64,000 bases of DNA. Origin: Clostridia bacterium. Lineage in GTDB: Bacteria; Bacillota; Clostridia; RGIG6154. The notes under the pieces are model-generated. The model searched no databases and was not told where the DNA came from. It saw nothing but the letters and a program-made list of their open reading frames with translations. The stretch spans positions 35 through 64,034 of the forward strand of contig JAZRDC010000030.1 in assembly GCA_045660065.1 (NCBI GenBank). Direction: 5' to 3'. Made by a program: the position numbers and the translations under genes. Positions 20,418 through 50,018 of the stretch are shown here, one piece after another (within the stretch, counting starts at the first letter, position 1; each line of letters starts with the position of its first letter).

Positions 20418-20585
20418 AATTTAGCTTCGGGGCAGGGTGTAATTCCCTACCGGCGGTTAAAGCCCGCGAGCGCATTTGCGCTGATTTGGTGAAATTCCAG
20501 AGCCGACGGTATAGTCCGGATGATAGAAGCAGGTTTATATCATAAACTTTTTGCCCCTTTGCATTATAAGGGGCTTTTTTTGTCC
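20418..20585 (+). promoter_or_regulatory. FMN riboswitch (RFN element) with intrinsic terminator
   Basis: CTTCGGGGCAGGGTG.AATTCCCTACCGGCGGT...AGCCGACGGTATAGTCCGGATGATAGAAG matches the RFN consensus. Terminator GCCCCTT-tgcattat-AAGGGGC followed by a T-run sits immediately upstream of ribU. Confidence 0.85.
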
Positions 20586-20609
20586 CGAAAAATGAAAGGA
20601 CGATCAACT

Positions 20610-21152
20610 ATGAACAAAGAAAATTTAAGAAAACTTACGGCAATGGGAATGCTTTGCGCAATATCGGTGGTACTTGTGTGGCTTATTCATTTCCCGATTT
20701 TCCCTGCGGCTGCATTTTTGGAATATGACCCTGCAGATATCCCTATTTTTATAGGCGCATTTTCTTTCGGGCCTGTTGCGGGACTTATTTTAACAATCGT
20801 AACATCAATAATTCAGGGCACAACAGTTTCTGCCTCAAGCGGGGTTTACGGAATTATAATGCACATAATTTCAACAGGAAGTTTTTGCCTTACATCAGGA
20901 CTTGTTTATAAAAAAATCCGAACAAAAAAAGGCGCAGCAATTTCTTTGATTGTGGGAGTTTTAACAATGACACTTGTTATGATTCCTGCAAACCTTTTTA
21001 TAACACCATACTTTATGGGGGCGCCCGTTTCGGTAATAAAAGGACTGCTGCTTCCTGCAATTATCCCATTTAACTTCACAAAAGCCACAGTAAACTCGAT
21101 CATTACATTTTTCCTTTATAAAAGAATATCAAAACTGTGGGAAAGAAGATAA
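20610..21152 (+). CDS. ribU: ECF transporter S component for riboflavin (RibU)
   Basis: 180-aa protein with six predicted TM helices directly downstream of the FMN riboswitch. The start was trimmed from the ORF-track 20520, which would have translated through the riboswitch, to the Met with an RBS. Confidence 0.8.
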   Translation: MNKENLRKLTAMGMLCAISVVLVWLIHFPIFPAAAFLEYDPADIPIFIGAFSFGPVAGLILTIVTSIIQGTTVSASSGVYGIIMHIISTGSFCLTSGLVYKKIRTKKGAAISLIVGVLTMTLVMIPANLFITPYFMGAPVSVIKGLLLPAIIPFNFTKATVNSIITFFLYKRISKLWERR

Positions 21153-26732: not shown

Positions 26733-26804
26733 CAAATCAGACAGCCTCTGTGGTATGTGGGGCTGTCTTGCGATATATTCTTGTAAAAAATATAAAAAAA
26801 TACT

Positions 26805-26832
26805 TGATTTTAGAAAATAAGTATGCTATAAT
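26805..26832 (+). promoter_or_regulatory. Sigma-A-type promoter of the RiPP-like operon
   Basis: TTGATT, a 16-nt spacer, then TATAAT. It lies just downstream of the M23 gene terminator (26745-26772). Confidence 0.55.
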
Positions 26833-26891: not shown

Positions 26892-27155
26892 ATGCGTCTT
26901 AAAGATGGTTTTTTGTTAAGAAAAGTTGCAGGTGAATTTGTTGTAGTTCCCACAGGGGATGCTATGGTGAACTTCAAGGCAATGATTACGCTTAACGAAA
27001 CCGGTGCTTTTTTGTGGGAAGCACTCAAAGAAGAAAAGACAGAAGATGACCTTGTTTCAGCACTCCTTGGTGAGTACGATGTGGACGAGGCAACTGCTAA
27101 AGAAGATGTAGGCGGATTTGTTAATCTTTTAAAAGAAAAGAATTTACTGGTATGA
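26892..27155 (+). CDS. PqqD-family RiPP recognition element (RRE), stand-alone
   Basis: 87 aa: MRLKDGFLLRKVAGEFVVVPTGDAMVNFKAMITLNETGAFLWEALKEEKTEDDLVSALLGEYDVDEATAKEDVGGFVNLL, the PqqD/RRE winged-helix signature. The start was trimmed to the Met with a GAGGGTG RBS. Confidence 0.8.
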   Translation: MRLKDGFLLRKVAGEFVVVPTGDAMVNFKAMITLNETGAFLWEALKEEKTEDDLVSALLGEYDVDEATAKEDVGGFVNLLKEKNLLV

Positions 27156-27604
27156 AAAAAGTTTTAAGTACAAAAGACCTTATGCCGCTTATAAGCGATA
27201 TTTTAAAAACTGCTGAGCGTGTAAGGTTTACAGTGAAGGGAAACAGTATGTATCCTTTAATCCGCGGCGGCCATGATGAGGTTGAAGTGGTTAAGTGCGA
27301 TAGTATCGGCAAGTACGATATTGTGCTTTATAAAAGAGCAAACGGAGCATATGTTCTTCACAGAGTCTTAAAAAAGCAAGACGGTGCTTTGTCAATAGCA
27401 GGAGATTTTGAACAGGAACTTGAACATCCTGTGTATGAAAATCAGGTTATTGCCAAGGTTGATAATATAATAAGAGCAAGCGGCAGAATTATTCCCTGCA
27501 GCAACAAGGTGTATAAATTATACTGTGTTGTATGGTCAGTGGCTCTTAAAAACAGACACAAGATACTTAAGGTGCTTAAAAAATTGAGGCGGTGGTGGCT
27601 TTGA
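27152..27604 (+). CDS. ER/archaeal-type (S26B, SipW/Sec11-like) signal-peptidase-like serine peptidase
   Basis: Box B GNSMYP, box C YDIVLY, box D VLHRVL (His in place of the P-type Lys) and box E AGDF. It has no N-terminal TM. Its ATG overlaps the PqqD stop (ATGA). Confidence 0.65.
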   Translation: MKKVLSTKDLMPLISDILKTAERVRFTVKGNSMYPLIRGGHDEVEVVKCDSIGKYDIVLYKRANGAYVLHRVLKKQDGALSIAGDFEQELEHPVYENQVIAKVDNIIRASGRIIPCSNKVYKLYCVVWSVALKNRHKILKVLKKLRRWWL

Positions 27605-29262
27605 AAAAAACAGACGTCGCTAAAAATTGGTTTTTTAAAAATATCTTAGATTTTGGCGGAGGGGTTTTTGTTCTCACCGCAATATCAATTCTGATAAATG
27701 TATCAGGTGTCGGATTTGCAATAGCATCTCAAAGACTTTTGGATGTTGCATCAAAGTCAATGAGCGGCAACTTGTTCAAAGAAGCAGGAATACTGGTTTT
27801 CTTAGTCGTGCTTCAACTTGTTTTGCAAATTATCCTCTCAAAGTGCTATGTTAAAACAAACGCACAGGTGAGAATTAAAATAAAAACAGACCTTTTCCGT
27901 GATGTTGTAAGAAAAGACCTTACAGAGGTTAATTGTTACCACTCGGGCGAACTGGTCAACAGGCTCTCTGCCGATGTTAATACCGTGGCAGGAGCGGTGG
28001 TGGATATTCTTCCTACGGCGCTTTCGCTGTCAATAGGAGTGGCGCTTAGTTTTATAGTTTTGTTTAAACTTGACCCGGTGTATGCCATTATTTATTTAAT
28101 AGTAGCACCTTTAGCACTCCTTACAGCAAGAATATTCAGAAGAAAACTTAAAGATCTGCATAAAGAGTCTGCTCAGTCAGACGGTAAAGTAAAAGCATTT
28201 ATGCAGGAATGTTTAAGAAATCTGTTGGTTGTGAAGGCTTTTCAGAAAGAAGAGCATATGACCGACAAGTGCAATGCTTATCAACTTGTTAACTACAAGG
28301 TTTTGATAAAGAAAAACAATGTAAGTATTTTGGCTAATGTAATGTTCTTTTTGTCCATTACTGCAGGATATTACTTAACATTGGTCTGGGGAGCGTATAA
28401 GCTTTCCATCGGACTTATGACTTTTGGTGAGATTGTGGCAATGCTTGAACTTGTTTCACAAATTCAATCGCCGCTTAAGTCATTGTCATCACTGTTTCCA
28501 CAGTATTATTCAGCACTGGCATCATCTGAAAGAATTTTAGAACTTGAAAGTTTGCCTGATGAATTAAAACTCAATCAAGGCGGGGCAAATGGATTTTCAA
28601 AACTTGTTATGGAAAATGTATCATTTGCTTATGATGATAAAAAAGTGTTTGAAAATGTATCCTGTGAAATAGAAAAAGGCGACATCATCGGAATTTGCGG
28701 TGAGTCGGGAATTGGAAAAAGCACTCTTATTAAACTCGTTTTAGGTGTGCTTACGCCGGATAGCGGCGAAATTTACATAAAAGACCAAAGTGGTCTTAAA
28801 GTATCGGTTGATACAGAAACGAGAAACATATTTTCATATGTGCCACAGGGCAACCTGATATTGTCCGGCACTATCGCAGAGAATGTGGTTTTCGGATCTG
28901 ACAACATAGATTTACAACTGGTTGAAAAAGTAATTCAGGTGTCGCAGCTTGATGAACTTATCAGTCAGTTACCGGCAAAACTTGATACTGTTTTGGGTGA
29001 AGGAGGCCTTGGGCTTTCGGAAGGACAGGTACAGCGATTATCTATCGCAAGGGCATTGTATCGGAATTCAGAAGTTCTGTTGCTTGATGAAGCAACATCG
29101 GCGCTTGACCGCGAAACTGAAATCAGGGTGTTGAAGGAAATCAGAGAAATGGGCAAAACATGTTTGTTCATTACTCACCGTTTGGAAGCACTTTCTAGTT
29201 GCAGCAAGCTACTAAGTGTAAAAGACGGGAAAGTTTCAATCGACAGGCAGGAAATTTTATAA
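27592..29262 (+). CDS. Fused ABC exporter (TMD-NBD) of the peptide/bacteriocin-export type
   Basis: Six TM helices, Walker A GESGIGKST, signature LSEGQVQRL and Walker B LLLDEATS. The start overlaps the upstream peptidase gene. Confidence 0.85.
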   Translation: MVALKKTDVAKNWFFKNILDFGGGVFVLTAISILINVSGVGFAIASQRLLDVASKSMSGNLFKEAGILVFLVVLQLVLQIILSKCYVKTNAQVRIKIKTDLFRDVVRKDLTEVNCYHSGELVNRLSADVNTVAGAVVDILPTALSLSIGVALSFIVLFKLDPVYAIIYLIVAPLALLTARIFRRKLKDLHKESAQSDGKVKAFMQECLRNLLVVKAFQKEEHMTDKCNAYQLVNYKVLIKKNNVSILANVMFFLSITAGYYLTLVWGAYKLSIGLMTFGEIVAMLELVSQIQSPLKSLSSLFPQYYSALASSERILELESLPDELKLNQGGANGFSKLVMENVSFAYDDKKVFENVSCEIEKGDIIGICGESGIGKSTLIKLVLGVLTPDSGEIYIKDQSGLKVSVDTETRNIFSYVPQGNLILSGTIAENVVFGSDNIDLQLVEKVIQVSQLDELISQLPAKLDTVLGEGGLGLSEGQVQRLSIARALYRNSEVLLLDEATSALDRETEIRVLKEIREMGKTCLFITHRLEALSSCSKLLSVKDGKVSIDRQEIL

Positions 29263-29284: not shown

Positions 29285-30217
29285 ATGAAATGTAAGAGAA
29301 TTTTCAAAGTAGCGAGCGCGCTCGCATTGACTGTAGCTTTGTTAGTATCTTCAGCTGTTGTTTCATTTGCTGCAACTTATACAACAACAACTACTTATAT
29401 TGATCAGAATACTATCGAAGTTACATCAACTGCTGTTGGTCTCAACAAAGGCGATATGGCTACTTATGTTGCTTACAATAACGACGGCTTTACAGAAGGT
29501 AACGCAGTTTACATCGACCAGGCAACAGCAGACGAAACCGGAGAAGTTGAATTTAAATATCAGACAGATCTTGATGATTTAAAAGCAACTGTTAAATTCG
29601 GTGGTTCAACAGAAAGTGCAGCTCAGGATGCTATACTTGGCGGTTACAATGTTAACATTAAAGTTGACGGCGTAGATGCAGGTACAGTTAAAGTTGCAGA
29701 AGTAGCTGCAGAATACGAAGGTGATCTCGCAAGAGAAATCCCTGTTGAACTTGATGCAAGTAAAGTAGTTGATAAAGTTACAGTAAATGGCGCAGAAGTA
29801 GCTTGGTATGTTAAAGACAAAGCTGTAGTTATTTACTCTAATGCTATCAAGGCTGATGGTGCAACTGTTGAAATTGAAACAGCAGCTGCAAAAGCAGTTA
29901 CACTTGTTCTCGGTGCTGTTAAGTCAGAAGCTGCTAATACAGTTACTGCATTTGCTAAAGCAACATGCGGTGCGTATGCAAACTATGGTATCTTAATCGG
30001 TGGTAATGCTACTCTCACAGAAGAAGTAGTTAGCTGGGACGCAGCAGAAGATTATTCTAAAGCTGTTAAATTACCTGCACTTGGTATGAGCAAAGACGGT
30101 ATGTTCTGTGTTGAAGTTACAGACGAAGCTCTTGTAGCAGGTACAGAATACAAAGTTGCAGCTTATGCAGGCGAAGAAGTTACAGATGCAAAAGCAGTAA
30201 CAGTAAAAGTACAGTAA
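29285..30217 (+). CDS. Secreted Ala/Val/Thr-rich protein of unknown function (Sec signal peptide)
   Basis: MKCKRIFKVASALALTVALLVSSAVVSFA|ATYTTTTTY..., with a GGGAGGA RBS. No recognisable domain. Confidence 0.6.
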   Translation: MKCKRIFKVASALALTVALLVSSAVVSFAATYTTTTTYIDQNTIEVTSTAVGLNKGDMATYVAYNNDGFTEGNAVYIDQATADETGEVEFKYQTDLDDLKATVKFGGSTESAAQDAILGGYNVNIKVDGVDAGTVKVAEVAAEYEGDLAREIPVELDASKVVDKVTVNGAEVAWYVKDKAVVIYSNAIKADGATVEIETAAAKAVTLVLGAVKSEAANTVTAFAKATCGAYANYGILIGGNATLTEEVVSWDAAEDYSKAVKLPALGMSKDGMFCVEVTDEALVAGTEYKVAAYAGEEVTDAKAVTVKVQ

Positions 30218-30263
30218 TTAAGCGACTGTATCAATAACGATACAAATTCAGGAGGTAAATTCT

Positions 30264-30428
30264 ATGAAAAATTATCAGAAACCTGTTTTAGAGGTTGTTG
30301 AATTAGCAGTTGCTGAAAATATCGCTGCATTAGTACCTAAGACTATCTATAAAAGATCAGCAGGTGCTAAACTCGCTCAGCAGGGCGTAAAAATGTACGA
30401 CATGAAAGCTGACGAAATTATAAGCTAA
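30264..30428 (+). CDS. 54-aa precursor-like peptide with a lasso-type leader motif and a C-terminal Ser. It is not in the ORF track because it is under 60 aa.
   Basis: Strong RBS AGGAGGT 8 nt upstream. Translation: MKNYQKPVLEVVELAVAENIAALVPKTIYKRSAGAKLAQQGVKMYDMKADEIIS. The N-terminus matches the Firmicutes lasso-leader motif MK.Y.KP.LEV that is bound by PqqD RREs. The C-terminal part is cationic and amphipathic. Confidence 0.6.
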   Translation: MKNYQKPVLEVVELAVAENIAALVPKTIYKRSAGAKLAQQGVKMYDMKADEIIS

Positions 30429-30470
30429 TTTTTAGAACTGCAAAATTTAATTAAATAAAAATTTGAGAGG

Positions 30471-31361
30471 ATGTTCACTTTTATTATGCAATATACTGTC
30501 GCAGGTTTAAATATTGATATTATCAGTGAGCATCCTTCTTACATTTTTATGAGAATGAAAGACTATGAAAGCACTTTTTCGGGGGAAGCAGACTTTACAG
30601 TCAGGTGTAAAGAAAACAAAAATATCTCGCTCCCCGAGGATTTTGTGCAGATTGGTGAAAGAGTCGGCAGATGGCTCTGGATTAAAAAGAAGGATGGCAC
30701 ACTTGGTGCTTATATTAAATACTCAGACCTTGAGCAAATCGCAGCTTATGTAAGTTGGGACAAGGATTTTAAAAACATTGAACTTGAGGTTTTGGATTTA
30801 GAACCTTTCGGTGGAATGGCAATAGAACAAAGAATGTTTTATTTGCTCGGTGATGTTTTTACTTACACAGTTTTAAGCCGCGGCGCAGGAGTTTTTCATT
30901 CCTCTGCTATCAGTTATAAGAGCAGCGGAATTTTGTTGTCTGCACCGTCGGGTACGGGTAAATCAACCCACGCAGAACTCTGGAAGACGGTTTATGGGGA
31001 AGATGTTATTCATTTTAACGACGATACCCCCGTACTTAAAGTAGAAAATAATACAGTTTATGCCTACGGTACTCCGTGGAGCGGAAAAACTGCTATAAAT
31101 AAAAATATAAAAGTGCCCCTTAAGGCGATTATAAGCCTTGACAGGGCACAGGAAAACTCGGTAAAAAGACTTATGGGATTAGACGCTTTTTACAGAGTGT
31201 TCAACGAATTCAGGAAGCCCCCTGAGGGTGGACTTTTAGATAATTGTTTAGCACTTATTGAAAATGTTTTGGATAAAGTTCCTGTTTATGAACTTTTGTG
31301 CAACAAAGACCAGAGTGCAGCAATTACACTTCACAAAGCATTAGGCTTTGACAAAAATTAA
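30471..31361 (+). CDS. HPr kinase/phosphorylase C-terminal-domain-like Ser kinase (RiPP tailoring kinase)
   Basis: P-loop LLSAPSGTGKST at ~aa 160, 296 aa. This family occurs as the precursor C-terminal Ser kinase in Firmicutes lasso clusters. The exact start is uncertain (30471 or 30486). Confidence 0.65.
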   Translation: MFTFIMQYTVAGLNIDIISEHPSYIFMRMKDYESTFSGEADFTVRCKENKNISLPEDFVQIGERVGRWLWIKKKDGTLGAYIKYSDLEQIAAYVSWDKDFKNIELEVLDLEPFGGMAIEQRMFYLLGDVFTYTVLSRGAGVFHSSAISYKSSGILLSAPSGTGKSTHAELWKTVYGEDVIHFNDDTPVLKVENNTVYAYGTPWSGKTAINKNIKVPLKAIISLDRAQENSVKRLMGLDAFYRVFNEFRKPPEGGLLDNCLALIENVLDKVPVYELLCNKDQSAAITLHKALGFDKN

Positions 31362-31378: not shown

Positions 31379-32989
31379 ATGAAAAAGAAACTGTTTTTTG
31401 GTGCGGTTATCACAACCGTTCTTTGCACAAGTCTGACTTTTTCAGCATTTGCTGCTAAATTTTCAGACCTGTCAGACAGCCATTGGGCTTACAAAAATAT
31501 TATGGAATTAAACTCACAGGGCGTAATTAACGGCTACTCTGACGGAACATTTCGTCCTGAGGCTCAGGTTACAAGAGCGGAGTTTGTAAAATTAATTGGA
31601 ACAACCAACGAAAAAAAATCAGAGGATTTCGCAGATCTTCCAAAAACTCACTGGGCATATGAATATGTTATGAACTCAGGGGTTGATATGGAAAGAAGAA
31701 ATTTCCGTCCTGATGAAAATATTACAAGAGCAGAAGTTTTAGACATTCTCTGGAATAGATACGGAACTGAAACAGATGCTGTTGTTCCCGGAATTATTGC
31801 AAATCAGCACGAAGAAATAAATGCCATCGCCTGGGGCTATTCATACGGTCTTATGATTGGTGATGACGGCATAAATTTAAGATTATCTGACGATTTGTCA
31901 AGAGCAGAAGCAGTAACACTTATCCTTCGTTCAAGAAAAATCGACACAACTAATCAGAAACTTTTAGCAGATAATGTAGCAGACAATCTTTTGAAAGATT
32001 TGTTCAATTCAACAGGGATTTTTGACTCTCAGTACAACGAAAACGCTACAATGACTATCGGTGAAATTTCAAGAGCGGCACTTAGAATTGCTCACGGAAC
32101 ACATTCGATTCTTTACAACAAAGATATGTATGTGGAAACTCCAAATTACGAAGATGAATATGCAAACGATGTTGCATATATGGCAAAGCAGATTTTCGGT
32201 GAAAGCAACAATAATAAAGAATATGCAACAAAAGCGGCAAATCAGCAGGAAGTAATCTCTGCTCTTATGTACGGCTATATGTTCAAAGCGAACGAATCTC
32301 CTGTTATCGGCAGAGTTGACGATTACTACAAAGATGCAACAGTTGACAAAAAGGAACTTATGAAAAATATGCTCCTTACTTATACAAAACGCAGAGGTGT
32401 GTTCTCAAGCGCCGATGGACTTTTACATAATGACAAACCTGTAACACACAAAGAAATTGCATCAATTCTTTTGCAACTTGACAATCTTACAGGCTCACAG
32501 ATGAGTTACTCAGGCGGCAAAGAGCAGGATGAAAAATTATCATTAAATGCGGCTTTATACCAAAAAGCAGATGGGGATTTCAAAACACTGCTTAAAGGAA
32601 TGCCTGAAGTAGTTTACACAACACCGATTGAAGGCTCTGCAACTGAATTTTTAACATTCTCAAAGGACTTTTTTGAAATATTTGCAACTCTTTCTGACGG
32701 TATTGTGAACAAAGCCAAAGTAAAGGGCGCAGAAATTGCAATCAGAGTTTATCCTACACTTGTATCAAATGCGGGAAACGAAGTAATTATGAGATCAAAG
32801 GTTTACATTGTTTCAAATCCGAACGGATTGGGACTTGGCGAAATCATTGGCAAGTGCGATATGGCAAATGATGTTACCGCCCGTGAAAACGGAACATACA
32901 TTGTTGATATCTCAACCAACGGACCGCTTGATGATATGTATATAAACCCTGCAAACGCAAGTTTAAGACGCGTTATCTGGAACGACTAA
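31379..32989 (+). CDS. SLH-domain (S-layer homology) cell-surface protein
   Basis: Signal peptide, then triplicated SLH motifs (FSDLSDSHWAYKNIMEL..., FADLPKTHWAYEYVM...). Confidence 0.8.
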   Translation: MKKKLFFGAVITTVLCTSLTFSAFAAKFSDLSDSHWAYKNIMELNSQGVINGYSDGTFRPEAQVTRAEFVKLIGTTNEKKSEDFADLPKTHWAYEYVMNSGVDMERRNFRPDENITRAEVLDILWNRYGTETDAVVPGIIANQHEEINAIAWGYSYGLMIGDDGINLRLSDDLSRAEAVTLILRSRKIDTTNQKLLADNVADNLLKDLFNSTGIFDSQYNENATMTIGEISRAALRIAHGTHSILYNKDMYVETPNYEDEYANDVAYMAKQIFGESNNNKEYATKAANQQEVISALMYGYMFKANESPVIGRVDDYYKDATVDKKELMKNMLLTYTKRRGVFSSADGLLHNDKPVTHKEIASILLQLDNLTGSQMSYSGGKEQDEKLSLNAALYQKADGDFKTLLKGMPEVVYTTPIEGSATEFLTFSKDFFEIFATLSDGIVNKAKVKGAEIAIRVYPTLVSNAGNEVIMRSKVYIVSNPNGLGLGEIIGKCDMANDVTARENGTYIVDISTNGPLDDMYINPANASLRRVIWND

Positions 32990-33024: not shown

Positions 33025-33717
33025 ATGGAAGAAAGAGAAATTGATATATTTGAACTTATACAAGCGGTCTTTAAAAGATGGTGGCTGGTGCTTGTAATTA
33101 CAATAGTAATGGGTAGCGTAGGTTTTGGGTATTCAAAATTTGCAATAACTCCTCTTTACTCTGCAAAGGGTACACTTTATATCACTATCGATAACACAGC
33201 AGCGGCTCAGGGCGGAACAAGTCTTGACTACAACTCGATTCTTGCAGCGCAGGAACTTACAAACACATATTCACTTATCTTGTCAAGTAACACATTTTAT
33301 AAAATAGTTGCTGCCGAAAGCGGACTTGACTATTCATACAAAGATATTTCTAAAATGGTTACAATGGGTAACGAAAACGAAAGTGAAATTATGAGCATTG
33401 TTGCAAGTTGTCCAAACAGAGAACATGCGGCAATAATCGTTGAAACAATCTTAAACAACGCACAGGCAGAAATTTCCCGCGTTGTTGTTGGCGGAAGCGT
33501 AAGGATTATCGATCATCCTGAACTTCCAAACGGTCATTCTTATCCAAATGTTACTAAAAACACATTCCTTATGTTGATTTTAGGATTTATTTTAGGATGT
33601 GCTTTAGCAATTTTCATTGAATGGCTTGACGATACAATCAAAGACGGTGATGATGTCATGAAATTTGATATTCCTGTATTAGCGGAAATTCCACTTTTAG
33701 AAGTTAAAAGTGAATAA
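33025..33717 (+). CDS. Wzz/CpsC/YwqC-like polysaccharide co-polymerase (chain-length determinant). Orphan: no BY-kinase partner is nearby.
   Basis: N- and C-terminal TM helices with a periplasmic Wzz-like segment, and N-terminus FELIQAVFKRWWLVLVITIVMG. Confidence 0.7.
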   Translation: MEEREIDIFELIQAVFKRWWLVLVITIVMGSVGFGYSKFAITPLYSAKGTLYITIDNTAAAQGGTSLDYNSILAAQELTNTYSLILSSNTFYKIVAAESGLDYSYKDISKMVTMGNENESEIMSIVASCPNREHAAIIVETILNNAQAEISRVVVGGSVRIIDHPELPNGHSYPNVTKNTFLMLILGFILGCALAIFIEWLDDTIKDGDDVMKFDIPVLAEIPLLEVKSE

Positions 33718-48738: not shown

Positions 48739-48814
48739 CAGAAATTGTACTGATAGTATATAATTATTCATAATTTTGTTTACTTTTTGAATTTGTTGTG
48801 GTATACTATATTTG

Positions 48815-49430
48815 TAAAAATAGGTGGCGCAGTATTCTAGTCAGATTTTTTCATTCCCAGGACGGGCCTAAAAATCCGTTGAAGGGCACATCGATGAAGT
48901 TTCTGGTGCCGGCTTTCGACGCCCAGTCGAGGGTTGGTGCTGGGAGTTAAGGATTAAGGGCGGTCGGCAATGGCATGCAGAATTCGACCCTTCTTCCGTG
49001 GAGACCTATACTTGTGGTGTATCTGCTGCGTGCTCTGTGAAGGGCCGGCGGAAAAACTACGACTTAGGATTAAACCTGCTTTGCGGTTAAATTTTTAGCT
49101 GTGGGCAGAGTAGCCTGCCTTGAGCGGGTGTGGTGGATTGTAAGATCAGGCGTTTTTTGGTCGGCCAACTGAAAAACACTATTGCTTCATGAAACCTCAT
49201 TTGCAAAAGAGGCTAAGATTGATTAAATCTGTAGAGGAAATCTCCTAGGCTGTTGGAAACAGATATGCAAAGGATTAGAGTGCGGACTAAGTGGCAATCG
49301 GGTACGAAACTGAGCGATCGTTTCGGCCGTGCTTTAAAGGGAAACCGCCCACATCGGCGACGAGTGAGCAGCATAGCGGGAAAACCAACCCGACCTAAGC
49401 CGTAAATTTTACTTTGTGTATTGCCCCTTT
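48815..49430 (+). ncRNA. OLE (ornate, large, extremophilic) RNA. The call rests on genomic context; the boundaries are approximate.
   Basis: A ~600-nt GC-rich, ORF-free, hairpin-dense segment in an AT-rich genome. It is preceded by an extended -10 promoter (tggTATACT) and followed by a small 4-TM protein gene and then dxs-tlyA-nadK-argR-recN. This is the conserved OLE/oapA neighbourhood. Confidence 0.65.
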
Positions 49431-49457
49431 ATTTACATTTTTTAGGAGTGTAGTAAT

Positions 49458-50018
49458 TTGAAGAAAAAGATTAAATTTAAATCAGGAAAAAAGAAAATAA
49501 GTATAAAATATGTACTCACAATTTCTTTTACCACACTTGTAATTGCCATTTTAATGAAAACCATAAGCGATGCTTTGCTTGAAAATATTATAATGGCATA
49601 CAGTTACTTTATATTGCTTGGAATAATATTGATAGGTATTATTTTCGATATTGTAGGCGTTGCGGTTACATCCTGCGATGAAACAAAGTTCCACGCAATG
49701 GCATCTGACAAGGTTTATGGTGCAAAAGAAAGCATTATGCTTATAAAAAATGCAGAAAAAGTTTCAAGCATCTGTAACGACGTTATAGGCGACGTGTGCG
49801 GAATTATAAGCGGTGCGGTGTCAAGTTGGATTGTGGTGCAACTTGCAGTTGGCGGGATAAGTGCGGGAGAAGATTTTCTTGCCCTTGGTATGACAGGGGT
49901 AGTTTCTGCTCTTACCGTTGGCGGAAAAGCACTGGGGAAATTTGCCGCAATTAATTTAAACAGTAATATTGTATATTTAGCAGGAAAAATTATAAGATTT
50001 TTCAAGTTTAAAAAATAG
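49458..50018 (+). CDS. oapA: OLE-associated membrane protein OapA-like (4 TM)
   Basis: 186 aa with four predicted TM helices, a TTG start with an AGGAG RBS, and a position between the ncRNA and dxs. Confidence 0.55.
   Translation: MKKKIKFKSGKKKISIKYVLTISFTTLVIAILMKTISDALLENIIMAYSYFILLGIILIGIIFDIVGVAVTSCDETKFHAMASDKVYGAKESIMLIKNAEKVSSICNDVIGDVCGIISGAVSSWIVVQLAVGGISAGEDFLALGMTGVVSALTVGGKALGKFAAINLNSNIVYLAGKIIRFFKFKK

Follow-up and report, generated by a model that had tools for sequence, protein, structure and literature searches.

The question raised by this locus is what a reading frame of 54 codons, placed between the gene of a secreted protein and that of a HprK-like kinase, may encode. 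It is found in the window, which is the whole 64-kb stretch of DNA that we have analysed. A first-pass annotation had described it as an unannotated precursor with a lasso-type leader, no ring-forming residues and a cationic core. The reading that we consider probable is that the ORF is the precursor (the "A" peptide) of a linear, leader-guided and probably phosphorylated RiPP, and that its module works like the LPP system of Bacilli. The LPPs are linear polyphosphorylated peptides, known from the lppA-K-B-S-D-N cluster of Paenibacillus alginolyticus (Popov et al., Nat Commun 2026, PMC13381572). The features of the locus are collected in Table 1.

Table 1. Features of the peptide locus, in window coordinates
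Feature	Position	Strand	Remarks
Promoter-like site TTGATT-17-TATAAT, extended TG	26804..26832	+	Upstream of RRE gene; candidate operon promoter; 10/12 consensus matches, best + strand site in 26.5-33.8 kb; consensus match only
Discrete PqqD-type RRE, 87 aa from MRLKDG	26892..27155	+	PF05402, 8e-20; mechanical ORF start 26835
Archaeal/ER-type signal-peptidase-I-like (SpI-like; SipW/LppS-like) predicted leader peptidase, 150 aa	27152..27604	+	TIGR02228, 2.7e-7
MsbA-like ABC exporter, fused permease and ATPase	27592..29262	+	PF00664, PF00005; best NCBIfam match MsbA (MsbA_lipidA), 9e-73; no C39 peptidase domain
P315, secreted protein, three FN3/Ig-like beta-sandwich domains	29285..30217	+	Always directly upstream of the peptide in the subfamily
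Shine-Dalgarno site AGGAGGT	30250..30256	+	7 nt 5' of the ATG at 30264
Precursor ORF	30264-30428	+	ATG at 30264, stop 30426-30428; 54-aa product MKNYQKPVLEVVELAVAENIAALVPKTIYKRSAGAKLAQQGVKMYDMKADEIIS
Leader, residues 1-21, MKNYQKPVLEVVELAVAENIA	30264..30326	+	YxxPxL RRE-binding motif; predicted cut after A21 or A22
Core, residues 22-54 (ALVPKTIYKR...DEIIS), and stop	30327..30428	+	Conserved PKTIYK (Thr27), invariant Ser54
HprK/ScmC-like P-loop kinase	30486..31361	+	PF27840; start probably ATG 30486 (MQYTV); mechanical ORF start 30471
SLH-domain cell-wall-anchored protein	31379..32989	+	PF00395, 2.5e-24; directly downstream of kinase, conserved in the subfamily
Wzz/CpsC-type polysaccharide chain-length determinant	33025..33717	+	PF02706, TIGR01006

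The peptide gene

The ORF is a genuine gene on which purifying selection has been strong. We have found 41 homologues in public data, with lengths of 52–55 aa. Residues 1–31 are nearly identical in all of them and residues 32–53 are variable: the alignment has 27 invariant columns, all but one within the first 31 residues, and seven further columns with at least 90% conservation. The C-terminal Ser54 is invariant in the whole set. Among codons 1–31 synonymous changes outnumber the non-synonymous ones, and Pro25 is encoded by four different codons. The Shine-Dalgarno site has a predicted duplex of −11.6 kcal/mol with the anti-Shine-Dalgarno sequence, the best value among 10 cluster genes, as had been claimed for the region from the sequence.

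The first-pass annotation had pointed to the loss or disruption of the ORF in relatives as evidence that would speak against it. We find that the peptide keeps its place in all the syntenic relatives examined (L001–L010, L013, L035, L050 and L051). Its description as unannotated is right in part only: one homologue (P0028) is a hypothetical protein in NCBI. The relatives of the locus, obtained in a search with an alignment of four peptidase sequences, are uncultured Eubacteriales and Clostridia, known as MAGs from goat, deer and other guts; a metagenome scan with the conserved leader DNA matched two short contigs only. At the level of RNA, a scan with Rfam gave no family at the peptide locus, the predicted fold of positions 30200–30480 is marginal (z = −1.9) and a search for a terminator 3' of the gene found none.

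The genes of the module

The peptide is part of an operon-like module and has upstream a discrete RRE of the PqqD type. It has matches below threshold to the lasso_PqqD models and a weak match to ScmD (NCBIfam). It is 42–45% identical to the RREs in cluster 4 of the sequence network of Popov et al. (SSN cluster 4), and 33% identical (6e-6) to LppB. Its residues N35 and D72 align with N33 and D70 of LppB; PbaB1 has Gly and Gln in these positions. The SpI-like peptidase follows the same pattern: it is 37–41% identical to the peptidases of SSN cluster 4 (1e-30 to 1e-34), 26% to LppS (3e-8, BLASTP) and 31% to another member of cluster 1 (1e-9). Its Ser and His are conserved, with S32 and H70 aligned with the catalytic S29 and H68 of LppS; an invariant E91 is aligned with D93 of LppS, and G84-D85 is also invariant.

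P315 has no match to any family or PDB sequence, and its structure is comparable only with generic FN3-like domains. The PDB matches of the SLH protein are limited to the SLH domain itself; its homologues follow the kinase in L007–L010, L013, L035 and L051. Genes similar to Wzz are found near many module loci, together with a CpsD-like kinase in L050 and L051. The module is flanked by Wzz, SLH proteins, a 3661-aa surface protein and an M23 peptidase, a cell-envelope setting.

About 35 of 43 independent genome loci combine the genes for RRE, peptidase, ABC exporter and kinase, in variable orders. The deeper relatives retain the arrangement P315-peptide-kinase-SLH/Wzz; the ABC gene is missing from the locus in L010, L013 and L050, and the peptidase gene in L051. 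Radical SAM enzymes appear only in more distant module loci, such as that of Desulfosporosinus sp. OT (L012). Within the window no lasso cyclase, B2 protease, radical SAM enzyme (PF04055) or PF14907 protein was found among ORFs of at least 150 aa, and a tblastn search with the PF14907 protein of L040 gave no match near the module in the window clade. Literature searches for a link between radical SAM, HPr kinase and PqqD gave nothing relevant, and those for ScmC only unrelated acronyms.

The HprK-like kinase, whose relevance had been suggested from the C-terminal Ser of the peptide, does turn out to be encoded next to it. Its catalytic role may be questioned, since the PF27840 (ScmC) proteins of such Clostridial or radical SAM contexts are all uncharacterised, it scores far below threshold against HprK_rel and ScmC of NCBIfam, its sequence profile matches HprK in the PDB at E = 0.33 only, and one homologue (L052) is solitary, with no module around it. 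The peptide could then be a leader-guided precursor in a module where the ScmC-like protein is a scaffold or another NTP-dependent transferase, with a product either unmodified or modified in some other way. We consider this unlikely. All of 41 diverse kinase homologues share the P-loop, the His and the NDD metal site without change; NDD is the metal site D158/D159 of PsmK, and its mutation kills that enzyme. Furthermore the HprK-like enzymes of the two related RiPP systems have been proven to phosphorylate Ser in peptides, and invariant Ser and Thr residues are present in the core.

Leader and predicted cut site

The first residues of the peptide had been assigned to the lasso-type leaders which are bound by PqqD RREs. 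This agrees with what we find: the motif YxxPxL is present (Y4, P7, L9), and 3 kb upstream there is a PqqD RRE gene with the Asn/Asp pair by which LppB binds YxxP leaders. The comparison with paeninodin, also made at that time, is valid for the common form MKx[W/Y]xKPxLEV, but the paeninodin type has WxxP instead of YxxP (PMC13381572). The consensus of the whole leader family is M-K-x-Y-x-K-P-x-[LIVF]-E-x-[VI]-E-L-x-x-E-E-x-[ILFM]-A.

Conservation in the precursor family collapses at I20-A21-A22, after Y+17/+18. This is within one residue of the cut proposed by the first-pass annotation, which saw there AxA-like sites suitable for an ER-type signal peptidase; such a protease is indeed encoded in the cluster. 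The junction of the window peptide is YQKPVLEVVELAVAENIA/A, with Ala at P+10 and Asn at P+12. The full motif of the LPP leaders, YxxPxVLxHQxIxFET/xxS (Px9Fx[T/A]), is absent: the two leaders have in common only YxxP and a Glu at Y+14.

An HMM of the leader hits the window once, and almost every one of about 45 module loci gives it one hit or more; many of these loci have Cys-rich cores and a radical SAM enzyme. The family travels together with the PqqD RRE, the SpI-like Ser/His peptidase, the HprK-fold P-loop kinase and the MsbA-like exporter.

Core and candidate acceptors

The residues after the predicted cut are A-L-V-P-K-T, so that a Ser at core position 3 is absent. The first Ser of the core, S32, is not conserved; the invariant one is the C-terminal residue, which is Ser as noted earlier from the sequence. 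By analogy with known kinases Ser54 is a plausible phospho-acceptor. Its candidature is weakened because a C-terminal Ser is not conserved outside the close clade: it is present in only 6 of 22 more distant cluster representatives, whereas about 18 of 21 retain the motif T-[IV]-Y around Thr27. Thr27 is weakened in turn because a Thr substituted for Ser3 of the LPP core was not accepted by LppK (PMC13381572).

The description of the core as Lys-rich, cationic, amphipathic and membrane-active is not supported by comparison with the homologues. It would correspond to a small bacteriocin or signalling peptide, active as an unmodified helix, which the neighbouring genes would only process and export. 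The core of the window has 6 Lys and 1 Arg with a net charge of +3, and there is an ABC exporter in the cluster. However the net charge varies from 0 to +3 in the 41 homologues, and from 0 to −3 in their variable part; the tail is conserved as acidic, [DE][DE][EG]K[LI]S, and in deeper relatives the core has a high content of Ser, Thr and Gly. An AMP-like amphipathic helix was rejected by comparison with shuffled sequences: the helical hydrophobic moment is not above them (p = 0.20 for the window, with values for individual homologues centred near 0.3). No immunity-type gene is evident either and the neighbours are cell-envelope genes. A peptide of this kind appears very improbable to us.

A lasso peptide with its cyclase and B2 protease elsewhere in the genome, phosphorylated on its C-terminal Ser as in paeninodin, has hardly any chance of being the product. 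The leader MKNYQKPVLEVVE is close to the paeninodin-like PbaA leader MKKEWLKPELEVLDV, the combination of a C-terminal Ser with an HprK-like kinase is also found in paeninodin and pseudomycoidin, and the RRE has the sub-threshold matches to lasso models given above. The core is nevertheless unsuitable. Thr27 is the only Thr in the peptide, therefore no Thr is found at −2 before G/A/S/C: with Thr27 at −2, Tyr29 would be core position 1. No arrangement combines Thr at −2, a first residue G/A/S/C and Asp/Glu at positions 7–9. Neither an Asn-synthetase-like cyclase nor a transglutaminase-like B2 is present in the ORFs scanned, and no cyclase-sized gene lies beside the module in the relatives without radical SAM enzymes (L001–L006, L050–L051). 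The cluster has its own SpI-like leader peptidase, an enzyme which replaces B2 in LPP systems (PMC13381572), and the conserved I-A-A junction is unlike those of lasso precursors. The earlier statement that no macrolactam ring is encoded thus agrees with both the core and the 64 kb around it, and a linear peptide would fit with the lack of a cyclase in this DNA.

Finally, a chance ORF in a spacer between two genes might be suspected from its mere 54 codons, the lack of a Pfam or NCBIfam match and an exact-sequence look-up which gave no gene call on record, but the probability is negligible: judged by the 41 homologues, which are conserved in length and nearly unchanged in their N-terminal half, the bias to synonymous substitutions, the strong Shine-Dalgarno site and a precursor family found beside the same enzymes across phyla, this idea is already refuted.

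Proposed mechanism and role

For the phosphorylated linear precursor which we favour, a pathway can be drawn by analogy with LppB, LppS and LppK and with the kinases PadeK and PsmK. The leader would be bound through Y4-x-x-P7-x-L9 by the Asn35/Asp72 pocket of the RRE. The kinase may then phosphorylate a hydroxyl of the core, possibly several times. Ser54 is a candidate as an invariant C-terminal Ser, like those of paeninodin and pseudomycoidin; Thr27 is another, since it is part of the deeply conserved PKTIYK near the leader-core junction, in a position like that of Ser3 in LPP. The RRE would present the junction to the SpI-like peptidase, which would cut after Ala21 or Ala22, and a peptide of about 32–33 residues would be exported by the ABC transporter.

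The module is constantly accompanied by genes for a secreted FN3-like protein, an SLH protein and Wzz, which suggests that the peptide acts at the cell envelope rather than as a classical antibiotic. This linkage supports the envelope or biofilm role which was only suggested for LPPs by Popov et al. A bolder version can be proposed, although we give it a rather low probability: the peptide would be a component or regulator of the envelope, its phospho-Ser or phospho-Thr, once the leader is removed and the peptide exported, would be a site of glycan attachment or priming, or a ligand of the FN3-like and SLH proteins, and the window would contain the simplest member of a large undescribed superfamily of SpI-like peptidase, RRE and ScmC-like kinase. 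If this were true, the Wzz-controlled assembly of polysaccharide, or that of the S-layer, would in gut Clostridia involve a ribosomal phosphopeptide, and the superfamily would also include the Cys-rich peptides modified by radical SAM enzymes in Clostridia, Acidobacteriota and Bacteroidales.

LPPs were described in 2026 and only in Bacilli. This locus would extend the same biosynthetic logic to uncultured Clostridia of herbivore guts, in a stripped-down version which has neither nucleotidyltransferase nor radical SAM enzyme and differs from LPP in the leader-core junction and the likely acceptor. The leader family spans dozens of uncharacterised clusters; in many of them the kinase is accompanied by a radical SAM enzyme and by Cys-rich cores, which would be a new chemotype. 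The five-gene set of the window, with a single short Cys-free peptide, is well suited for a study of acceptor choice by HprK-like kinases.

Comparison with known systems

Paeninodin and pseudomycoidin are phosphorylated class II lasso peptides of Bacillota, with kinases PadeK and PsmK; in pseudomycoidin a hexose is added to the phosphate. They are similar to the window peptide in the MKx[W/Y]xKPxLEV leader, the ABC exporter and the C-terminal Ser, which is their phospho-acceptor and is invariant in the window clade. As in class II lasso systems generally, there is a leader motif [Y/W]xxPx[L/V/I/F/A] with a discrete PqqD RRE, for which binding is predicted in our case. The window differs by having a SpI-like protease instead of B2 and no cyclase, Tyr instead of Trp in the leader, Asn/Asp instead of Gly/Gln in the RRE, and a core with neither Thr at −2 nor a ring-forming Asp/Glu.

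The SynChlorMet (SCM) cassette (TIGR04248–04251: ScmC, ScmD, ScmE, ScmF) is related through its kinase family PF27840 and through the weak match of the RRE to ScmD; like the radical SAM/SPASM cassettes in general, it also resembles those distant module relatives which carry a radical SAM enzyme and Cys-rich precursors. In the window the radical SAM/SPASM maturases ScmE and ScmF are absent, the core is Cys-free, and all NCBIfam scores are far below the family cut-offs.

With the signal peptidase I of SipW type in Bacillus the window enzyme has in common the signature of the catalytic core, GxSMxP...HR...GD. SipW is a membrane enzyme which removes Sec signal peptides from TasA and TapA, whereas the window enzyme is small, associated with an RRE and predicted to work like LppS, cutting the leader while it is bound to the RRE.

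The closest match among known systems is LPP. The differences are clear: the window has no PF14907 nucleotidyltransferase (LppN), its leader has neither HQxIxFET nor Px9Fx[T/A], and its junction, [ILFM]-A-(small), lies at a distance from the Pro that is greater by two or three residues. The polyphosphorylation site of LPP, Ser at core position 3, is absent; the close clade has instead an invariant C-terminal Ser. The window module is linked to a secreted FN3-like protein and an SLH protein, and its hosts are uncultured gut Clostridia, while those of LPP are Bacilli. The peptidase is not in SSN cluster 1, where LppS is found and edges are at E ≤ 1e-23; peptidase and RRE group with SSN cluster 4 (37–45% identity, as compared with 26–33% to LppS and LppB). 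The locus belongs to a Clostridial sister lineage, listed but not studied by Popov et al. (PMC13381572). It shares with LPP a discrete PqqD RRE in which the Asn (H-bond at the Pro kink) and the Asp (H-bond to Tyr) are kept, a Ser/His leader peptidase like the archaeal SpI, an HprK-like kinase, an MsbA-like exporter, the lack of a macrolactam cyclase, a precursor whose leader contains YxxP and whose C-terminal part is variable, and a position among genes for capsule, exopolysaccharide and cell envelope.

The peptide gene and its conservation

The first-pass annotation had pointed out a 54-aa precursor ORF with the strongest ribosome-binding site of the region. This is borne out by its coordinates, by the predicted pairing energy of AGGAGGT with the anti-Shine-Dalgarno sequence (-11.6 kcal/mol, the top value among ten genes in 25-34 kb) and by 41 homologues of 52-55 aa, found in a search of 5.8 billion proteins. 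Their alignment has 27 invariant columns, of which a single one is outside residues 1-31, and seven others with conservation of 90% or more. Variation is found in residues 32-53; the final residue is Ser in all 41. In codons 1-31 synonymous changes exceed non-synonymous ones in each DNA pair which shows differences. Four different codons are used for Pro25. The position of the ORF is retained in every syntenic relative. The homologues, their conservation, the synonymous bias and the synteny demonstrate that a genuine protein is encoded here.

Synonymous sites are also unusually conserved in codons 1-31 (30264-30356). At positions with the same amino acid 75-93% of the codons are identical; for the genes on either side, the same genome pairs give 39-71%. 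From codon 6 to codon 19 six genomes are nearly identical, and a single genome deviates, at codons 13 and 14. Selection of codons for high expression and a constraint at the RNA level are both possible explanations; the RNA fold z-score at the locus is only -1.9. The 46-nt spacer between the FN3-like gene (P315) and the peptide gene contains a hairpin, GTATC-aataac-GATAC (30228-30243, + strand), which is kept in four related loci (L001, L007, L008, L009). It might be an element of mRNA processing or stability which uncouples precursor levels from the upstream genes.

The gene cluster and the rest of the window

Features of the peptide gene cluster
Feature	Position	Strand	Match or remark
Promoter-like site	26804-26832	+	
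PqqD-family protein (RRE)	26892-27155	+	PF05402, 8e-20
150-aa protein, sole family match archaeal-type signal peptidase I	27152-27604	+	TIGR02228, 2.7e-7
Fused ABC exporter, nearest MsbA	27592-29262	+	9e-73
P315, secreted, 310 aa, without family match	29285-30217	+	
Shine-Dalgarno AGGAGGT	30250-30256	+	7 nt 5' of the peptide ATG
Peptide ORF, 54 aa, MKNYQKPVLEVVELAVAENIAALVPKTIYKRSAGAKLAQQGVKMYDMKADEIIS	ATG 30264, stop 30426-30428	+	
Kinase-like protein	30486-31361	+	ScmC and HprK-related matches, sub-threshold
SLH-domain protein	31379-32989	+	
Wzz-type chain-length determinant	33025-33717	+	
Surface protein, 3661 aa	33738-44723	+	

A Pfam scan took in nearly all the other ORFs in the window that reach 150 aa. 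It found among them no Asn-synthetase-type lasso cyclase, transglutaminase-type B2 protease, radical SAM enzyme or PF14907 nucleotidyltransferase; what it did find were genes for cell division, murein and glycogen, besides SecDF, dxs and similar ones. The absence of cyclase and B2 protease in these ORFs, together with the peptide sequence, confirms the earlier statement that no lasso ring is encoded.

The secreted 3661-aa protein has SLH-like repeats in its N-terminal part, many tandem repeats of about 110 aa and a long acidic helical repeat region. In relatives the tandem repeats are of the Flg_new type; versions of 2000-4600 aa are found in relatives in the same place. Elsewhere in the window there is an FMN riboswitch (20419-20535, + strand; RF00050, 119 bits), directly 5' of the S component of an ECF riboflavin transporter (20520-21152), and a full-length OLE (ornate large extremophilic) RNA (48808-49443, + strand; Rfam RF01071, 503 bits). 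The latter is followed by a 186-aa ORF without Pfam match (49458-50018), which may be the usual OLE-associated protein.

The kinase-like protein

With a cut-off of E <= 1e-5 there are 1014 homologues of the kinase-like protein; of the 120 matches listed, nearly all carry a precomputed Pfam assignment to PF27840 (ScmC). In 41 diverse homologues the invariant residues are His143, most of the P-loop S157-A-P-S-G-T-G-K-S-T-H167, Trp171, N183-D184-D185, Pro187, G200 and P202-W-S-G-K206. The AlphaFold2 model is confident (pLDDT 94.9). In the homologous pseudomycoidin kinase PsmK the metal-site mutation D158A/D159A abolishes activity (PMC6993621), and this DD pair is retained here. The invariant motifs, the model and the DD pair together identify an NTP-using enzyme of the HprK fold whose active site is intact. 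We infer that the peptide is its substrate.

The start of the kinase gene is ambiguous: the mechanical ORF begins at ATG 30471, directly abutting GAGAGG, whereas the homologues align from MQYTV, at ATG 30486. A ScmC-like homologue, 34% identical, lies in another genomic locus (L052, 8001-8867), where it is solitary: its neighbours are housekeeping genes, and neither an RRE nor a peptidase or peptide is close to it. The linkage of the module is thus not universal among PF27840 proteins.

Leader family and distribution of the module

Relatives of the peptidase turned up in 43 loci when one genome per species was scanned. About 35 of these loci combine the peptidase with the RRE, the ABC exporter and the kinase-like protein, in one of several gene orders; among the hosts are Clostridia, an Acidobacteriota MAG, Paenibacillus doosanensis and Bacteroidales. 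Nearly all of these loci have small ORFs with the window-type leader. A profile built from 25 leaders has exactly one match in the window, the peptide, and one to three per module locus. The consensus, anchored on Tyr (Y = 0), is M(-3) K(-2) x Y [VQI] K P x [LIVF] E [VIY] [VI] E L [R] x E E [RN] [ILFM](+16) A(+17), then a small residue. Past this residue conservation collapses throughout the family, which places the leader-core junction of the window peptide at I20-A21-A22. The leader had been likened to those of the paeninodin family. Its shape is indeed very close (the paeninodin-like precursor PbaA is MKKEWLKPELEVLDV, from primers), but the residue that discriminates between the two is Tyr here and Trp in paeninodin-type leaders (PMC13381572).

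Wzz-like genes are found near many loci, of all tailoring types. A radical SAM/SPASM-like enzyme with Cys-rich cores is present in about 19 loci and a PF14907 homologue in about 20; the window clade has neither. Distant relatives with radical SAM are found in L012 (7041-12244), L014, L017, L020, L022, L023, L026, L027, L032, L034 and L041. Their gene order is RRE, radical SAM/SPASM-like enzyme (374-387 aa), one to three Cys-rich precursors, ScmC-like kinase, SpI-like peptidase and ABC exporter; many also have the PF14907 transferase. The precursors have the window-type leader and a core which often starts with xGS or GS. These loci match no curated NCBIfam system and our literature search found no paper on them. 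They may form an undescribed class of phosphorylated radical SAM RiPPs, and these larger relatives may be more novel than the window locus. Outside Bacillota, the module of four genes (kinase, SpI, RRE, ABC) is found in Bacteroidales MAGs (L045-L049: Coprenecus, Alistipes, Bacteroides, Mediterranea), where the leader-like peptides seen were all weak, for example NQFYEAPLLEVVEMSVEQGFAAS.

In the subfamily of the window locus, a recurring order is RRE, peptidase and/or ABC exporter, followed by a P315-like gene, peptide, kinase, and SLH protein and/or Wzz. It is found in five loci (L010, L013, L035, L050, L051) with kinases only 36-43% identical to that of the window. Searching 1.84 billion cluster representatives with a profile added 22 peptides, 49-66 aa long, with the window-type leader and a core which starts A-[LIM]-V-P-[KR]-T-[IV]-Y-K-[KR]. 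T-[IV]-Y is retained in about 18 of 21, and Ser replaces Thr in one. Their tails are variable and rich in Ser, Thr and Gly: the C-terminal Ser is present in only 6 of the 22, and most have a Ser within the last five residues. P315 evolves fast, with 49-69% identity where the kinase has 70-91%. Its model has a signal peptide and three beta-sandwich domains, best matched by FN3 domains. P315 is a surface protein rather than an enzyme.

A cationic, helix-prone and amphipathic core had also been proposed, which the data do not support. Net charge across the family is 0 to +3 in the core and 0 to -3 in its variable part, the conserved tail is acidic ([DE][DE][EG]K[LI]S), and the maximal helical hydrophobic moment of the core is not above that of shuffles (p = 0.20 for the window).

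Proposed cleavage, phosphorylation and pathway

A full-text literature search gave a single paper of direct relevance to this locus, Popov et al. (Nat Commun 2026, PMC13381572), in which the linear polyphosphorylated peptides (LPPs) of Bacilli are defined. Their genes code for a discrete RRE (LppB), an archaeal-type SpI-like leader peptidase (LppS; S29, H68, D93), an HprK-like kinase (LppK), a MsbA-like exporter (LppD) and an uncharacterised NTP transferase (LppN), and are located in capsule and EPS loci. The precursor motif is YxxPxVLxHQxIxFET/xxS: LppS cuts after Thr(-1), which requires LppB, and core Ser3 receives one to four phosphates from LppK (PMC13381572). At -3 LppS favours a hydrophobic residue, at -1 a small one (F-E-T/) (PMC13381572), so our best guess is a cut after Ala22 (I-A-A/L) or Ala21.

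Conservation in close and distant peptides leaves two candidate phospho-acceptors, Ser54 and Thr27. Ser54 is invariant in the close clade, and the equivalent position is phosphorylated in paeninodin and pseudomycoidin (PMC6993621). Against Thr27, LppK refuses Thr (PMC13381572); in its favour, Thr27 is conserved more deeply than Ser54 and is near the leader-core junction, like Ser3 of LPPs. The core motif P25-K26-T27-I28-Y29-K30 (30333-30353) contains a deeply conserved K-T-I, which we take to resemble K-S-I, the context of Ser46 in HPr; HPr is the substrate of the genuine HPr kinase. The likeness could be coincidental, or it could hint at Thr27 as acceptor.

The peptide belongs to a leader family and is linked to four enzymes with intact catalytic and binding residues, and the window ORFs scanned include no cyclase. 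By analogy with experiments on LPPs, paeninodin and pseudomycoidin, the RRE would bind YxxPxL of the leader and the kinase would phosphorylate Ser54 or Thr27, perhaps repeatedly. Assisted by the RRE, the SpI-like enzyme would cut after A21 or A22, and the ABC transporter would export the product. The constant FN3-like, SLH and Wzz neighbours suggest, speculatively, an envelope-related role, as Popov et al. also suggested for LPPs (PMC13381572).

Comparison with LPP systems

About 75% of the SpI homologues collected by Popov et al. co-localise with RREs; only SSN cluster 1 was studied there. Their supplementary table also lists cluster 4 (Desulfosporosinus, Dehalobacter, Anaerocolumna) and cluster 9 (Ruminococcus, CAG:56), with 'other' RREs and without assigned precursor; Clostridia and radical SAM enzymes are both absent from the main text (PMC13381572). 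We compared the window proteins with the sequences of this supplement by BLASTP. The peptidase is 37-41% identical to cluster 4 (1e-30 to 1e-34) and 26% to LppS (3e-8); the RRE is 42-45% identical to cluster 4 RREs, 33% to LppB (6e-6) and 30% to the lasso RRE PbaB1 (4e-8). Peptidase Ser32 and His70 align with the catalytic S29 and H68 of LppS; an invariant Glu91 stands opposite D93, and G84-D85 are invariant. In the RRE, Asn35 and Asp72 align with N33 and D70 of LppB, which fix the Pro kink and bond Tyr, respectively (PMC13381572). In PbaB1, which is specific for Trp, Gly and Gln stand in their place, so that Asn35 and Asp72 are consistent with Tyr in the window leader.

Four LPP features are absent from the window locus: the SSN cluster, the leader motif, Ser3 and the NTP transferase. 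The remaining six testable features are present. The locus is a good, tractable lead. This kind of system is already known, but only since May 2026, and the window locus is best described as an unreported variant of it, from a lineage listed yet unanalysed in the LPP paper (PMC13381572).
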